Part shown: one piece after another, positions 977 to 8,423 of the stretch
How positions within the stretch are numbered: position 1 is the stretch's first letter
How the letters are laid out: each line of letters starts with the position of its first letter
From: an uncultured bacterium
Lineage (GTDB): Bacteria; CAIJMQ01
Direction: 5' to 3'
Length of the DNA: 10,970 nt
NCBI GenBank assembly: GCA_964573245.1
Contig: CAZNJA010000046.1
Span: 1 to 10,970, forward strand
Made by a program: the position numbers and the translations under genes
The notes under the pieces: model-generated
Databases searched by the model: none
The model's input: the letters and a program-made list of their open reading frames with translations, nothing else
Told to the model about the DNA's origin: nothing

Positions 977-1041
977 TTGCGGGGAATAAAAATCTTTTAA
1001 CGAACACCGAAAACCGCTAACCGAACACCGAAAGGTTATTT

Positions 1042-1254
1042 ATGTGTTTAGCGTTACCGATGAAAGTTGTGAAAATAGATAGCTCCGGCGGAGTTGTTGA
1101 AATAGGCAAAGTCAAGATGCAGGTTAATTTGGAGCTTCTTGATAATGTTAAAGTCGGAGAATATGTAATCGTTCATGCCGGCTTTGCGATACAGAAAGTG
1201 GACCCGAAAGAAGCAAAAGAAACGATTGAAATTTTGAAGGAAATGGCGAGATAA
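1042..1254 (+). CDS. hypC: Hydrogenase maturation chaperone HypC/HupF
   Basis: MCLALP N-terminus with Cys2 and VGEYVIVHAGFAI motif; 70 aa. Confidence 0.97.
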   Translation: MCLALPMKVVKIDSSGGVVEIGKVKMQVNLELLDNVKVGEYVIVHAGFAIQKVDPKEAKETIEILKEMAR

Positions 1255-1297
1255 AAAACGGTTATCGTAAAGATAAAACGGGTTTCGGTTATCGGAG
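1251..1297. repeat. Left (G/T-rich) arm flanking the four-helix-bundle gene
   Basis: Contains CGGTTATCG (1259-1267) and CGGGTTTCGGTTATCGG (1279-1295). 1284-1295 is a perfect 12-bp reverse complement of 1704-1715. Confidence 0.8.
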
Positions 1298-1304
1298 AAA
1301 CAAG

Positions 1305-1667
1305 ATGAATACTATAAAAAGTTATAAAGATTTAGAAGTGTGGAATAAAGGTATTGAATTAGTAAAGCAGGTTTATTTAAGTACGAAGAAATTTCCAAAA
1401 GAAGAAATATATGGTTTGACTAATCAAATGAGAAGGTCGTCGGTATCTATCCCTTCCAATATTGCTGAAGGAAAAATGAGACAGCATACTAATGAATATG
1501 TTCAATTCTTGTATGTAGCACTTGGTTCGTGCGGGGAATTGGATACCCAGTTAATTATTGCTGAACAATTGGGATATATTTCTAAACAAGAAGCATCAAG
1601 TTTTACTGATGAGATCGACCATATTTCACGAATGATAAGGAATCTTATCAAAACCATAAGAAAATGA
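1305..1667 (+). CDS. Four-helix-bundle protein (23S rRNA intervening-sequence protein / bAvd-like family)
   Basis: SYKDLEVW, FPKEEIYGLTNQMRRSSVSIPSNIAEG and FLYVALGSCGELDTQL are typical family motifs; 120 aa; GGAG SD at 1294-1297. Confidence 0.93.
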   Translation: MNTIKSYKDLEVWNKGIELVKQVYLSTKKFPKEEIYGLTNQMRRSSVSIPSNIAEGKMRQHTNEYVQFLYVALGSCGELDTQLIIAEQLGYISKQEASSFTDEIDHISRMIRNLIKTIRK

Positions 1668-1688
1668 ATCATTTATTATTGTCGTTTT

Positions 1689-1723
1689 TGCGAAAACCGA
1701 TAACCGATAACCGAACACCGAGC
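1689..1723. repeat. Right (A/C-rich) heptamer arm flanking the four-helix-bundle gene
   Basis: TGCGAAA ACCGATA ACCGATA ACCGAAC ACCGAGC; ends 7 nt before the hypD ATG; near-copy of 1008-1033. Confidence 0.85.
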
Positions 1724-1730
1724 TGTTAAA

Positions 1731-2825
1731 ATGAAGTATATAGACGAATTCCGAAACCCTGAACTAACGAAAAAGCTTATTGCAAAGATAAGCGGGATGG
1801 TTTCAGATTACAAGAAAGACATAATACTAATGGAAGTATGCGGAACGCATACTGTAGCCATTTCTCGTGCCGGTTTGAGGAAACTTTTTCCGTCAAATCT
1901 CAAACTGCTTTCAGGGCCGGGATGTCCTGTCTGTGTAACGCCTAATAATTATCTTGATAGGGCAATTGCCTACTGCCGAAGAAATGATGTCATCTTAGTT
2001 ACCTTTGGCGATATGATGAGAGTTCCAGGTTCAACTTCTTCTTTGGAAAAAGAAAAGAGTAGGGGTGGTGATGTGCGTGTTGTTTATTCGCCGATTGATG
2101 CTTTGAAGATTGCGAAGGATAATCCGAAGAAGAAAATAATATTTCTCGGGGTCGGGTTTGAGACGACTTCTCCGACTATTGCCGCAACTATTAAAACCGC
2201 AGAAGACCAGAATATAAAGCACTTTTTTGTTTATTCAGGGCATAAGATTATGCCTCCCGCAATGAAAGCGCTTGTTGCTGATAAAGAAGTCCACATTAAT
2301 GGATTTATATGTCCCGGACATGTAAGCACTATTATCGGCTCTGTCCCTTATGAATTCATACCTGAAGAATATAATATCCCCTGTGTTATTGTAGGGTTTG
2401 AGCCGCTTGATATCGTTGAAGGTGTTTATATGCTCGTGAAGCAGATTATTGATAAAGAAAAACCGAGCGTACAGATTCAATATACCCGTTCGGTAAAAAG
2501 AGAAGGAAATCCCAAAGCGCTTGCGCTTATGGGCAAAGTATTTGAACGGGAAGATTCAAATTGGCGGGGATTGGGAATGATTCCCGACAGTGGATTAAAG
2601 ATAAGGAAAGAGTTTTCGGCTTTTGATGCTCTTAAGAATATAGAAGTTGAAGTAGAGCCGACAAAGGAAAACAAACAGTGTATATGCGGTGAGGTTTTAA
2701 GAGGAGTGGAGAGCCCGCTATCATGTAAACTCTTCAAAAAAGCATGCACGCCCGAAAACCCAATCGGTGCCTGTATGGTTTCTTCGGAAGGAACTTGTGC
2801 GGCGTATTATAAGTATGGAGAATGA
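1731..2825 (+). CDS. hypD: Hydrogenase maturation protein HypD
   Basis: MEVCGTHT, GPGCPVC, GFETT and PGHVS motifs; C-terminal Fe-S cysteines ending CMVSSEGTCAAYY. Confidence 0.98.
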   Translation: MKYIDEFRNPELTKKLIAKISGMVSDYKKDIILMEVCGTHTVAISRAGLRKLFPSNLKLLSGPGCPVCVTPNNYLDRAIAYCRRNDVILVTFGDMMRVPGSTSSLEKEKSRGGDVRVVYSPIDALKIAKDNPKKKIIFLGVGFETTSPTIAATIKTAEDQNIKHFFVYSGHKIMPPAMKALVADKEVHINGFICPGHVSTIIGSVPYEFIPEEYNIPCVIVGFEPLDIVEGVYMLVKQIIDKEKPSVQIQYTRSVKREGNPKALALMGKVFEREDSNWRGLGMIPDSGLKIRKEFSAFDALKNIEVEVEPTKENKQCICGEVLRGVESPLSCKLFKKACTPENPIGACMVSSEGTCAAYYKYGE

Positions 2826-2891: not shown

Positions 2892-2941
2892 AACCTCTTA
2901 ATAATTTGAATTTAAGGGAAATTAACAAAAAAGGAGATGTT

Positions 2942-3637
2942 ATGAATAAAGGTGTTGTGGCAGTGGTTTTGGCGGTATGCATGATATCATGCGCGTTTGT
3001 ATTTGCGGCGGATGAAGAGTTAAAAACTGATTCTGATAAGTTAAGTTATATGCTGGGAATGGATATCGGGGCGTTTTTGAAAGGAATTCCCAGAGAAACC
3101 GATTTTGATATTTTTATCCGTGGCATCAAGGATACTTATGAGGGAGGAGAAACGCTTCTTACTGAAGAAGAGGCAATACAAATAAAGCAAGAGTTTGTTA
3201 AAGAGATGCAAATGGAGGCAACTAAGAAAATGAATGAAATCAGCGAAAAAAACAAGAAAGACGGAGAAGCATTTCTTGCGGAAAACAAAAAGAAAGAGGA
3301 AGTTGTTACGACTGCAAGCGGTTTGCAGTATATCGTTTTACAGAAAGGGACAGGCGCTTCTCCAAAGCTCGACGATAAAGTCACAGTGCATTACTCGGGA
3401 ACGCTGATTGACGGAACAGAATTCGACAGTTCTTACAAACGCGGGGAACCTGTTACCTTTCCGCTTAACGGTGTGATTAAAGGTTGGGGCGAAGGCTTAC
3501 AGCTTATGAAAGTGGGCGGAAAAAGCCGTTTATTTATACCTTCGCAGCATGCTTACGGAGAAAAAGGAGCGGGTCAGCAAATTCCGCCCAACTCTGTTCT
3601 GATATTTGAAGTAGAATTATTAGGGATTGAAGAATAA
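2942..3637 (+). CDS. FKBP-type peptidyl-prolyl cis-trans isomerase (FkpA/Mip/FklB-like) with signal peptide
   Basis: ATG 2942 follows AAGGAG and is preferred over TTG 2906. Signal peptide ends VFA; KLSYMLG dimerisation domain; VTVHYSGTLIDGTEFDSS, VIKGWGEGL and IPPNSVLIFEVEL FKBP motifs. Confidence 0.93.
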   Translation: MNKGVVAVVLAVCMISCAFVFAADEELKTDSDKLSYMLGMDIGAFLKGIPRETDFDIFIRGIKDTYEGGETLLTEEEAIQIKQEFVKEMQMEATKKMNEISEKNKKDGEAFLAENKKKEEVVTTASGLQYIVLQKGTGASPKLDDKVTVHYSGTLIDGTEFDSSYKRGEPVTFPLNGVIKGWGEGLQLMKVGGKSRLFIPSQHAYGEKGAGQQIPPNSVLIFEVELLGIEE

Positions 3638-3718: not shown

Positions 3719-4093
3719 ATGCACGAGTTTTCTATAGCAAATCCAATAGTTAAAAAAGTTTTGGATTTGGCCAAAGAGAAAAAAGCAAAAGCAGTCAAGG
3801 GCATAGAAGTTTGCGTCGGGGAACTGGTTTTATTGGGAGCGGAAGAAGAATTTAGATTTTGGCTAAAAGAACTGTTATGTAAAGAAGAAATTGCCAAGGA
3901 TGCACAAATAAAGATAAATATAGTCAAATCGAAGGTTAAATGCAGGAAGTGCGGATACGAAGGGGGTTTGGAAGTAAATCACGAACATAGTCATTCCCAT
4001 CCCGTTTTTCTTTGCCCACATTGTGAAGACAGCGATATAGACATAAAAGAGGGAAAAGATTGCGTACTAGAAAAAGTGCAAGTGGAAATATAG
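3719..4093 (+). CDS. hypA: Hydrogenase nickel metallochaperone HypA
   Basis: MHE N-terminus; CRKC and CPHC zinc motifs; hyp gene context. Confidence 0.93.
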   Translation: MHEFSIANPIVKKVLDLAKEKKAKAVKGIEVCVGELVLLGAEEEFRFWLKELLCKEEIAKDAQIKINIVKSKVKCRKCGYEGGLEVNHEHSHSHPVFLCPHCEDSDIDIKEGKDCVLEKVQVEI

Positions 4094-5103
4094 ATAGAAT
4101 ACTTCTTGCACACGGCGACGGCGGAAAGTTGATGCATCAACTTATTGAGGAATTTTTCAGGAGAAAATTCAGCAATAAAATATTAAATGAGTTAGGCGAT
4201 TCCGCAGTTATTAAGATATCTCCCCGCAAAAATTCTAAATTTTCCTTTACCACAGATTCCTATGTTGTAAATCCCATCTTTTTCCCGGGTGGGGATATCG
4301 GTAAACTTGCTGTATGCGGAACGGTGAATGATTTGGCGGTTATGGGCGCAAGACCATTATATATATCTTGCGGTTTTATAATAGAAGAAGGACTGGAATA
4401 CGAAATTTTGGAAAAGATAACGAATTCTATGGCAAGAACCGCTCAAAAATCCAACGTAAAAATCGTAACGGGCGATATCAAGGTAGTTGAGAAAAACAGC
4501 GCCGACAAACTTTTTATAAACACATCGGGAATTGGGGTTATAGATGGCAATGTCAAGATTTCCAAGAAAATGATAGGGCCGTCCGATAAAATAATCGTAA
4601 GCGGCTCTATAGGCGAACACGGTCTTGCCATTTTGTGTGCACGAGGAGGATTTGGTTTTCACAGCAGGATTAAAAGCGATTGCGCTCCATTGGGCGGGCT
4701 TATTCAAAAAATGTTCGGCGTTTCAAAAAACATTAAGTTTATGCGTGACCCAACAAGGGGTGGATTGGCTGTAACTTTAAACGAAATAGTAGAAGGAATG
4801 GATTTCGGAATTTTACTCAACGAGGATATTCTGCCGATAAGAAAAGAAGTGAAAGCAATATGCGAAATTTTGGGGTTTGATCCGTTATATATGGCAAACG
4901 AAGGCAAAGTAGTTGTCATAGTGTCAAGTAAAGATGCTGCGCTTGTTCTGAAAACCATGCGCCGACATCCTCTGGGCAAAAACAGCCGCATTATCGGCGA
5001 AATAGTCCCAACTCCCAAACAAAAAGTTTTATTAAAAACAAAAATAGGCAGCTCTCGTATTATAGATATGCCGACAGCTTCTCAACTTCCACGAATTTGC
5101 TGA
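4060..5103 (+). CDS. hypE: Hydrogenase maturation protein HypE (carbamoyl dehydratase)
   Basis: LAHGDGG, TTDSYVV..FFPGGDIGKLAVCGTVND, MRDPTRGG, ANEG and C-terminal PRIC. The start is uncertain (TTG 4060 after AGAGGG, overlapping hypA). Confidence 0.96.
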   Translation: MRTRKSASGNIDRILLAHGDGGKLMHQLIEEFFRRKFSNKILNELGDSAVIKISPRKNSKFSFTTDSYVVNPIFFPGGDIGKLAVCGTVNDLAVMGARPLYISCGFIIEEGLEYEILEKITNSMARTAQKSNVKIVTGDIKVVEKNSADKLFINTSGIGVIDGNVKISKKMIGPSDKIIVSGSIGEHGLAILCARGGFGFHSRIKSDCAPLGGLIQKMFGVSKNIKFMRDPTRGGLAVTLNEIVEGMDFGILLNEDILPIRKEVKAICEILGFDPLYMANEGKVVVIVSSKDAALVLKTMRRHPLGKNSRIIGEIVPTPKQKVLLKTKIGSSRIIDMPTASQLPRIC

Positions 5104-6808: not shown

Positions 6809-7408
6809 ATGTTGAAAAGATTTTTATTTTTTTTATTGGTAATTTGCTTATTTGCGGGTTGTTTTGCAGATACTTCGTCAAATGCAACAAACGAAGAGCA
6901 AGATAATATCCCCATACTTTTAAAAAAACCCGAAAAGTGGGGAGATGCTCCAAATTTTACAGCAGTTAGAGTAGGGGGTGGAGATTTTATGCTTTCTGCG
7001 TTAAAAGGAAAAGTTGTTTTGCTTAGTTTTTGGTCTGTTGATTGTCCTGCTTGTAAAATGCAGATACCTGTTTTAGGGCAACTTTATAAAAAATATAATA
7101 GGGAAAAATTAGAGATTGTAGGCGTTTGCTTGAGCCCCGAGACAGCAGTTCAACGTTTTACAAAATCAGTGGAAATGAATTATATTTTGGCATTACTCAA
7201 TCAGGATATGGCGAATAAATACGGAAGAGATCTGCGATTTATTCCCTTTACTTTGGTGATTGATCAACAAGGTAATATTTACCAAAAACATGTCGGTTTA
7301 GCAGATGCTGACGTATTAGAGAAAGAAATTAAAGAACTCTTGGAAAAAACAGATAAAAGTGTTAAATTACCAAACACCAAGAAGCAAGATACAAACAATA
7401 ATCAATGA
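6809..7408 (+). CDS. TlpA/ResA-family thiol-disulfide oxidoreductase, probable lipoprotein
   Basis: Lipobox LFAGC; APNF and LKGKVVLLSFWSVDCPAC; cis-Pro IPFTLVID; ccdA adjacent. Confidence 0.9.
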   Translation: MLKRFLFFLLVICLFAGCFADTSSNATNEEQDNIPILLKKPEKWGDAPNFTAVRVGGGDFMLSALKGKVVLLSFWSVDCPACKMQIPVLGQLYKKYNREKLEIVGVCLSPETAVQRFTKSVEMNYILALLNQDMANKYGRDLRFIPFTLVIDQQGNIYQKHVGLADADVLEKEIKELLEKTDKSVKLPNTKKQDTNNNQ

Positions 7409-7494
7409 CCAATAACCAATCGCCAAACAGAATCAAGTATTCAAAAGAACAATTGGAGTTTGTTTGGTTATCGTATCTTGTATCTTGGTTATTG
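7368..7494. repeat. 7-nt-periodic inverted arm pair with no ORF between the arms
   Basis: CAA at 7371/7378/7385/7392 then 7396/7403/7410/7417/7424; TTG at 7453/7460 then 7464/(TCG 7471)/7478/7485/7492. CAATAACCAA (7410-7419) complements TTGGTTATTG (7485-7494); CAAGATACA (7385-7393) complements TGTATCTTG (7479-7487). Confidence 0.8.
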
Positions 7495-7512
7495 CTAACT
7501 AGCTGATTCATT

Positions 7513-8211: not shown

Positions 8212-8231
8212 TCGAAATGTAGTTTCGATTA
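8209..8231. repeat. Perfect 9-bp inverted repeat with 5-nt spacer
   Basis: TAATCGAAA-TGTAG-TTTCGATTA, starting at the ccdA stop codon. Confidence 0.6.
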
Positions 8232-8242
8232 CCTCGTATAGT

Positions 8243-8348
8243 GTCCCGAAAATTTTGGAGAAATTTCCCCCGAGGAATTCGGAGAATTCCCGGGACTTTG
8301 GTCCTCGGAATTTTTGTAAAATTCCAGAGGGTGAAAAATTTTCGGGAC
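8243..8348. repeat. Nested palindromic element (MITE/REP-like)
   Basis: Perfect 14-bp terminal inverted repeat GTCCCGAAAATTTT (8243-8256)/AAAATTTTCGGGAC (8335-8348) encloses two related GGAATT..AATTCC hairpins (8269-8294, 8303-8330). Confidence 0.75.
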
Positions 8349-8423
8349 GTCTTACATTGCGGGGTTAGTTGATGAGAAAACACTGTGCTTTAGCGCGGGG
8401 AAATTCAAAAAAGGAGGTATAAA

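Follow-up and report, generated by a model that had tools for sequence, protein, structure and literature searches.

A four-helix-bundle gene between inverted heptamer arrays in a hypC-hypD spacer: one of a very widespread class of foldback cassettes that carry a gene

The closest described relatives of the element analyzed here are the intervening sequences (IVS) in the 23S rRNA genes of Coxiella and Leptospira, where inverted repeats forming a predicted stem surround an open reading frame (ORF) for an ‘S23p’ protein. In the Coxiella study (Warrier et al. 2016, PMC4990558), three to four GACAGAT heptamers, in a copy number that varies among strains, are described from the 5′ arm of the IVS, a 28-bp stem forms around the S23p ORF, and RNase III cleaves this stem at the first repeat in vitro; the IVS lacks its own promoter and is carried along on the host transcript, the ORF is reported to be decaying and untranslated, and the heptamers are treated as a local curiosity. 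The subject of this work is a gene of the same protein family, coding for a four-helix-bundle (4HB) protein of 120 amino acids (aa), on a 10,970-bp contig of an uncultured bacterium (hereinafter, the window). It, too, lies between inverted repeats that contain tandem heptamers but, unlike the IVS, it resides not in 23S helix 25/45 or elsewhere in an rRNA gene but in the spacer between the protein-coding genes hypC and hypD.

Systems of the RAYT/REPIN type provide a second point of reference: a single-copy gene is flanked by inverted copies of a repeat that is also dispersed in intergenic regions as inverted pairs, the repeats are family-specific, and the repeat load is linked to the presence of the gene. 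In the window, too, the repeat that borders the gene in inverted orientation has further copies elsewhere in the genome. However, the gene encodes a helical bundle rather than an IS200/IS605-like Y1 transposase, 7-mers in tandem take the place of a 20–40-nt palindrome, and some carriers of 4HB genes have no dispersed copies. The Drosophila Foldback transposons and the miniature inverted-repeat transposable elements have long terminal inverted repeats made of short tandem units, and many of their copies lack both ORF and transposase; however, Foldback is eukaryotic and much larger, and the element in the window shows no visible target-site duplication, and its coding copy specifies a protein that does not look enzymatic.

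Tandem heptamers as such have been described as well: TAACTGA in Beggiatoaceae, treated as direct repeats with one inverted instance (MacGregor 2015, PMC4679880), GGGAATC, enigmatically enriched in Xanthomonas, and GGGGA(C/T)T in Nostoc (Rehm et al. 2015, PMC4692102), and the heptamer repeats of cyanobacteria (Pradhan et al. 2022, bioRxiv 10.1101/2022.06.06.494920). Like the arrays in the window, these are tandem 7-mers, intergenic, often close to start codons and lineage-specific, and the GGGAATC/GGGATTC heptamer of Xanthomonas (PMC4692102) is the one found at accB-accC 4HB genes in the Luteimonas family. The available parts of the three papers name neither a function nor a partner of the arrays and contain no link to the 4HB family: PMC4692102 yields 0 matches for 23S, S23, intervening and four-helix, and PMC4679880 yields 0 for intervening and S23. 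Among the open full texts searched, no publication was found to connect the PF05635/S23p genes as a family with heptamer arrays, and the sole published instance found is the Coxiella 23S IVS, for which the heptamers are noted locally.

The window is the complete contig C46 of a 1.46-Mb, 93%-complete assembly with 38% GC (G000), and its gene order is the end of hypF, hypC, the PF05635 gene, hypD, an FKBP gene, hypA, hypE and redox genes. The 4HB gene and the two inverted 7-nt-repeat arrays around it make up a discrete unit, 1252–1721, which is composed and bordered as follows.

1042–1254, plus strand: hypC, the upstream host gene (PF01455, E 2.1e-26), stop codon TAA at 1252–1254
1252–1721, plus strand: whole cassette, the unit in common with a copy at another locus of the same-genus genome G001 (alignment and BLAST)
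1255–1297, plus strand: left arm (inverted repeats I1, I2, I12 and I13)
1305–1667, plus strand: gene of the 120-aa 4HB protein (PF05635/TIGR02436/NF008911, ‘S23p’; profile matches)
1668–1690, plus strand: 3′ trailer ATCATTTATTATTGTCGTTTTTG, conserved with the G001 cassette (alignment)
1691–1721, plus strand: right arm, 4.4 units of tandem ACCGAnn heptamers (Tandem Repeats Finder (TRF), period 7, 87% matches)
1731–2825, plus strand: hypD, the downstream host gene (PF01924, E 3e-153)

The left arm starts directly after the hypC stop codon, and the right arm ends 7–9 nt before the hypD ATG. The left arm is the less regular of the two: one unit, CGGTTATCG (1259–1267), is followed by an 11-nt spacer, TAAAGATAAAA (1268–1278), and then by two to three units, CGGGTTTCGGTTATCGG (1279–1295), with the GGAG Shine-Dalgarno sequence of the 4HB gene (1294–1297) overlapping the end of the arm. 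Read directly from the sequence, 1284–1295 and 1704–1715 form a 12-bp perfect inverted match; CGGTTATCG is perfectly complementary to 1698–1706 and, one register on, to 1705–1713; and the 17-nt arm 1279–1295 pairs at 88% with both 1697–1713 and 1704–1720, i.e. in two registers 7 nt apart. The first-pass annotation of this DNA, a reading of the sequence alone, had proposed reverse-complementary arms with this perfect match and several pairing registers; this reading holds, as do the arm positions and the right array, whereas the left arm is not the clean heptamer array it was taken for.

The borders of the unit are set by its nearest homologue, in G001 (phmmer E 9e-72; ORF DNA 88% identical). 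The G001 cassette has the same left-arm motif, 3′ trailer and ACCGAnn right array as the window: at locus L037, positions 1373–1405 correspond to window 1252–1284 (94%) and 1480–1892 to window 1305–1720 (88%). The similarity runs from ~1252 to ~1720, and both alignment and BLAST detect none outside these stretches. This copy is not located between hypC and hypD; its flanks are syntenic with contig C15 of G000 (81% and 77% identity), where the corresponding site is taken up by an ORF-less element of 140 nt whose inverted arrays consist of another heptamer, CTAGATA/GTATCTAG. The hypC-hypD spacers of the relatives compare as follows.

G000 (genome of the window), 476 nt: 4HB cassette with CGGTTAT-type arms
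G001 (same genus), 84 nt: ORF-less foldback of the TGGTAAT type
G003 (same genus), about 119 nt: ORF-less foldback of the GGTTAAC type
G004 (sister genus), −4 nt: empty; hypC and hypD overlap as ATGA

The cassette occupies different intergenic sites in sister species, and the site is empty in the sister genus, where the ATGA overlap is an exact empty site. The suggestion that the gene belongs to a discrete element devoid of a transposase is borne out by the end of the G001 homology at both borders at a different locus; no transposase domain was found in the cassette, the only Pfam matches being PF05635 and a sub-threshold one to bAvd. The junctions are A-rich (TAAAAAA on the left, TTAAAATG on the right), and the comparison with the G004 empty site shows no clear duplication. 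Contigs assembled from four DNA runs (short only) bridge the left and right junctions over 457 and 771 nt with no differences, and there is no empty-site or ORF-less variant among these short contigs.

The 4HB protein scores above the curated profile cut-offs of its family: it matches PF05635 over 1–105 of 106 positions (E 3.2e-41, 140.3 bits, cut-off 33.8), TIGR02436 with 132.9 bits (cut-off 24, E 5.1e-39) and NF008911 of NCBIfam with 161.1 bits (cut-off 137). Among known structures, it is similar to PDB 2gsc_A (XCC0516; E 5.6e-26 over residues 6–119), a homologue reported to be a pentameric four-helix bundle, and to 2rld_A (E 1.2e-06). Against the G001 orthologue, the ratio of non-synonymous to synonymous substitutions (dN/dS) is 0.09 at dS 0.58, which indicates that the protein is kept by purifying selection.

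The protein is also related in fold and family to Avd, the accessory protein of diversity-generating retroelements (DGRs), itself presumably pentameric. A DGR remnant or satellite, in which the 4HB protein would be Avd and the arrays would be the template and variable repeats, would account for the weak similarity to Avd models, but the scores are below the cut-offs (27 bits against 40 for the bAvd model PF22296; 26.4 bits against 80 for NF033474), a reverse transcriptase (PF00078) has 0 matches in G000, and the repeats are tandem 7-nt arrays with no template/variable pair. Given the lack of a detected reverse transcriptase in this genome and the sub-threshold Avd scores, this reading is rejected, with hardly any probability left to it.

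Arms of this kind are the norm in the family. In G000, five of the six PF05635 genes lie between inverted heptamer arrays, each with its own heptamer, both by visual inspection and by scoring; in the class of G000, there are 22 PF05635 matches in six of nine genomes, and nearly all of the 16 flanks inspected are inverted heptamer arrays. A wide search with an 8-sequence alignment retrieved 603 relatives, of which the best 80 loci, from ~20 bacterial phyla and one archaeon, were studied. When the complementarity of the 100 nt upstream to the 100 nt downstream was compared with that of swapped partners, 64 of the 89 usable loci exceeded the 95th percentile and 46 exceeded the 99th; the self-similarity of the flanks peaks sharply at lag 7 (0.60, vs 0.33–0.48 at lags 4–11). 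With flank windows anchored on the hidden Markov model match and the threshold set at the 95th percentile of swapped partners, the inverted-repeat (IR) score passes in 63 of 74 loci of the wide sample and in 15 of 17 loci of the class; in a gammaproteobacterial family, it does so in 18 of 30. The same threshold is passed by 51 of 1159 G000 gene proxies and by 6 of 137 neighbor genes of the wide loci; the 4HB gene of the window has an IR score of 12.0, and those 51 proxies are the only ones in G000 above 10. Complementary heptamer-array flanks are the rule for PF05635 genes across phyla.

Another reading of the locus would be coincidence, i.e. that the arrays are generic intergenic repeats, such as translation or transcription signals near start codons, as proposed for TAACTGA, and the 4HB gene is an ordinary small gene among them. 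G000 is rich in such repeats (period 7 is the commonest tandem period, with 241 of 1011 TRF rows, merged into 269 arrays), arrays also precede hypC and bracket housekeeping genes, and heptamers just upstream of start codons are described in MacGregor 2015 (PMC4679880). Nevertheless, in G001 the ORF lies elsewhere together with its arms, the reciprocal sites are occupied by other heptamers, and the excess of complementary flanks at 4HB genes over neighbor genes includes genomes without dispersed arrays; this reading is largely refuted and appears very improbable.

The cassettes are embedded in operons. Of the 69 loci with a called upstream neighbor, 63 have it co-oriented with the 4HB gene; for the downstream neighbor the figure is 58 of 69, and both are co-oriented in 52 of the 63 loci with both called. 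The median gaps to the neighbors, 54 and 45 nt, correspond to just the arms. The recurrent host junctions join genes of one complex, namely, hypC-hypD here and accB-accC and carA-carB in the Luteimonas family (the identities of accB, accC, carA and carB were read from the flanking protein sequences), where the cassettes (L134, L135, L138, L139 and L141–L163) have GGGACCC-type arrays at carA-carB and GGGAATC/GGGATTC-type arrays at accB-accC, the site of many of the copies. Three alphaproteobacterial loci (L067, L111 and L121) share a common spacer, which, judging by the conserved flanks, looks like a nuoC-nuoD junction, but carry different heptamers (GGCAGTC, GGCAATA and AGTGAGT), each with matched arms; this is covariation at the scale of whole arms.

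The arms are also polar: of 73 cassettes, 58 begin with the G-rich array and end, beyond the core, with the C-rich one, 12 have the reverse order and 3 are ties, and the same G-to-C polarity is seen in the ORF-less pairs listed for Bosea and Luteimonas. Because this arrangement is strand-symmetric, the polarity is a property of the element and not of the ORF orientation. As for a code relating protein to heptamer, there is a weak trend but no rule (median identity 47.8% vs 44.4%), and one heptamer can occur with proteins that are 45% identical to each other.

Arrays like those of the arms also occur away from the 4HB gene. The window heptamer is found at 16 further sites in G000, and the window itself contains two ORF-less foldbacks, one of them with the same repeat family as the cassette.

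868–1033, strand not applicable: ORF-less foldback upstream of hypC, of the same ACCGAnn/CGGTTAn family as the cassette (TRF, similarity, fold)
7388–7497, strand not applicable: further ORF-less foldback with CAATAAC/GGTTATT and AAGATAC/GTATCTT heptamers (TRF rows 7396–7426 and 7473–7487), in the spacer between an AhpC/TSA-like and a DsbD-like gene

The foldback at 868–1033 consists of a left part with GACGGTTAGCG, a hairpin core (~934–994) with two internal hairpins, and a right ACCGAnn array (1001–1033) that is 82% identical to 1685–1728, i.e. to the right arm of the cassette; it has a predicted closed fold with an outer stem 870–878/1015–1023 (z −4.87). It is inserted between the conserved motif AGATTTGATAAGATTG (841–856) and the hypC start, whereas in G004, which lacks a foldback here, AGATTTGATAAGATTG lies 8 nt from the hypC ATG; G001 and G003 hold foldbacks of their own types in this spacer. 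More broadly, G000 has 21 inverted array pairs less than 2.5 kb apart, 14 of which have gaps of at most 137 nt and therefore hold no ORF, and for 137 of the 269 merged arrays there is a match to the arms of one or another 4HB cassette in the class (12 + 3 match the type of the window cassette). The ORF-less copies of the window family look like the cassette minus the ORF because they have non-periodic parts in common with it: the left-arm motif CGGTTATCGTAAAGATAAAACGG recurs in ORF-less elements on contigs C49, C55 and C73, and TTTTTGCGAAAACCG, the end of the trailer, is also the inner border of ORF-less arrays, with similar sequences at window 995–1010 and on C2, C6, C15, C36 and C49. The genome-wide, mostly ORF-less array family, its copy upstream of hypC and the generality of the architecture for PF05635 all go beyond the first-pass annotation.

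The 4HB gene as the sole cargo of the inverted arrays of G000 can be ruled out, as the pairs also bracket genes for NusB-like, SmpB-like, Der, SecD, MnmE, TIM, IlvH and HNH proteins. The HNH endonuclease gene (C9:13444–14061, L165; PF01844, E 7e-12) lies within strong inverted AAATCAA/TTGATTT arrays with an IR score of 22, and may be a second kind of foldback-array cargo.

Searches for the gene’s own heptamer, with control patterns, in other genomes gave the following picture.

Bosea sp. OK403 (6.6 Mb; exactly one PF05635 gene), (GGCAGTC)n: 91 matches vs 1 for the control, mostly ORF-less inverted pairs
Luteimonas soli (one PF05635 gene), (CCCAGNN)n: 100 matches vs 1 for the control
Microcoleaceae metagenome-assembled genome (MAG), (GGGAACN)n: 365 matches vs 0 for the control
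Ruminococcus MAG, (CCACTAA)n: 12 matches, 12/12 at the gene
Archaeon, CCACTAG type: 4 matches, at four loci

In four lineages, the heptamer of the gene is also scattered genome-wide as ORF-less inverted pairs. The count for G067 (11 matches vs 11 for the control) is uninformative because the backwards control resembles the pattern; the generic class pattern, GGTNANN x3, is likewise uninformative, with counts near those of the control. The Luteimonas family (the family of G063) allows a comparison within one group, in which 31 of 61 genomes carry the 4HB gene, mostly in one copy: (GGGANNN)3 matches have a median of 183 in gene-positive genomes vs 2 in gene-negative ones (Mann-Whitney p 4e-6, overstated, as are such p-values in this family, because related genomes are not independent), and at least 40 GGGANNN-array matches are present in 23 of 31 gene-positive vs 8 of 30 gene-negative genomes. 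Gene-positive genomes with few GGGA arrays have other heptamers at the gene.

These observations lend support, if only indirect and genomic, to the binding of the arrays by the protein that the first-pass annotation had thought possible, and they bear on a two-component system of the RAYT/REPIN type, in which the 4HB protein, as a pentameric, Avd-like nucleic-acid binder, would recognize, maintain, spread or regulate the arrays, with the cassette as their master copy. The array loads of Bosea, Luteimonas soli and the Microcoleaceae MAG, the tracking of array load by gene presence in the Luteimonas family, the alternative heptamers in its GGGA-poor carriers, and the match of about half of the G000 arrays (137/269) to class cassette arms all favor such a role. 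It is opposed by the arrays confined to the gene in the Ruminococcus MAG and the mere 4 matches in the archaeon, by the eight gene-negative Luteimonas-family genomes that are nonetheless array-rich, by G001, where GATNCT arrays have 72 matches but 0 of 5 PF05635 genes have such arms, by the weak tracking of arm identity by protein identity, and by the non-independence of the genomes in the family test; furthermore, the PF05635 family is not known to have a catalytic motif, and causation may be reversed, with cassettes settling where arrays pre-exist. A system of this kind is possible but, on balance, doubtful. A role of the protein on the arrays, to which a similarly limited chance is given, would be compatible with the explanation preferred below and would add a function for the protein to it.

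That preferred explanation, held with moderate confidence, is that 1252–1721 is a small promoter-less selfish cassette in an operon spacer, kin to the ORF-bearing IVS of 23S rRNA, with arms that fold out the insert. Its descriptive core, a gene-bearing foldback cassette that belongs to a very widespread class, is well supported; as to the mechanism, the arms would probably fold the insert out of the operon transcript. The scan of 850–1800 found no sigma-70-like promoter on the plus strand and no terminator, and a scan of 800–1800 against Rfam at E up to 1 matched no RNA family. In the predicted RNA fold of 1240–1740, the arms are paired in both the minimum free energy and the centroid structures (z −2.88), and none of the 100 shuffled sequences folds as well, in line with the pairing that the first-pass annotation anticipated. 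The cassette would be transcribed by read-through from hypC, and in the transcript the arms would form an imperfect stem of ~17–30 bp that would fold out the 360-nt ORF and bring the hypC stop codon beside the hypD start. The same stem would hide the 4HB gene’s own Shine-Dalgarno sequence, an occlusion suggested by its overlap with the left arm. A junction with translational coupling, as in the relative with the empty site, would thereby tolerate the insertion, and the cassette would change its intergenic location by recombining with ORF-less arrays that belong to its own family, rather than by means of a transposase. Among the mechanisms considered, this read-through insert with paired arms ranks first and is reasonably, though far from overwhelmingly, favored.

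Several observations weigh against it. The arm mismatches show no excess of G:U (139) over A:C (159) and hence no sign that pairing of the sense RNA is under selection; stem stability does not account for the fixed order of the G-rich and C-rich arrays; the cassette junctions show neither a target-site duplication nor any other visible trace of recombination; and, since the housekeeping genes SecD, MnmE, TIM, IlvH and Der are also located between inverted arrays in the array-rich G000, flanks alone are no proof of a cassette. In addition, the search for RNase III came up empty (PF14622 in 0 of the 9 genomes of the class, PF00636 in 0 of 1); in this search, five of the nine class genomes are at least 90% complete and the control is positive in 8 of 14 model genomes.

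The last point bears on a strict version of the IVS analogy that the first-pass annotation thought possible. Under this version, a double-strand-specific RNase would cut the stem, excise the 4HB mRNA and leave hypC and hypD as separate, processed mRNAs, with the protein irrelevant. Folding predicts that the arms pair, the cassettes lie within operons, and the Coxiella IVS offers a precedent both for heptamers in the arm and, in vitro, for RNase III cutting at the first of them (PMC4990558). However, the failure to detect RNase III in the nine class genomes sets the lineage of the window apart from Coxiella, the low dN/dS indicates that the protein is kept whereas the Coxiella ORF decays, and the arms lack a G:U excess; the fixed G-to-C polarity of the element also counts against a simple RNase III model. 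The predicted pairing and the heptamer precedent support part of the analogy, whereas strictly RNase III-type excision in the G000 lineage is unlikely.

Some further features of the window lie outside the cassette. An FKBP-type prolyl isomerase gene (2906–3637) separates hypD from hypA, and the reading frames of hypA (3719–4093) and hypE (4060–5103) overlap. The long spacer before the thioredoxin gene (8212–8423) contains palindromic units with GGGACTTTGGTCC, and a near-identical motif is present upstream of G001 hypC (L009, about 1130); these units may be a second dispersed repeat family.

The proteins of the PF05635/TIGR02436 family are very common but their function is not known; the same applies to the tandem heptamers of cyanobacteria, Xanthomonas and Beggiatoaceae, for which the partner is not known either. 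The two are joined by a rule: inverted heptamer arrays almost always border the gene, and many genomes also have these arrays at scattered sites without the gene. Tentatively, PF05635 proteins and tandem heptamer arrays might constitute one widespread two-part system of bacteria and some archaea, in which the protein, as an oligomeric ring, would bind the arrays and promote or maintain their spreading as foldbacks, and the rRNA IVS and the operon cassettes would be the gene-bearing master copies. By the same speculative token, the protein could be the missing partner of the cyanobacterial STRR-type heptamer repeats, of the Xanthomonas GGGAATC arrays and, possibly, of others.

On the practical side, arrays of this kind break assemblies and shift start-codon calls, so that their recognition helps annotation. 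If the protein acts on the arrays, they would together represent a new class of small mobile or regulatory elements that need no transposase, which would also explain the presence of such ORFs inside rRNA genes. If, instead, folding out the insert is all that the arms do, the cassettes show how a selfish gene can live harmlessly in coupled junctions such as hypC-hypD, accB-accC and carA-carB.

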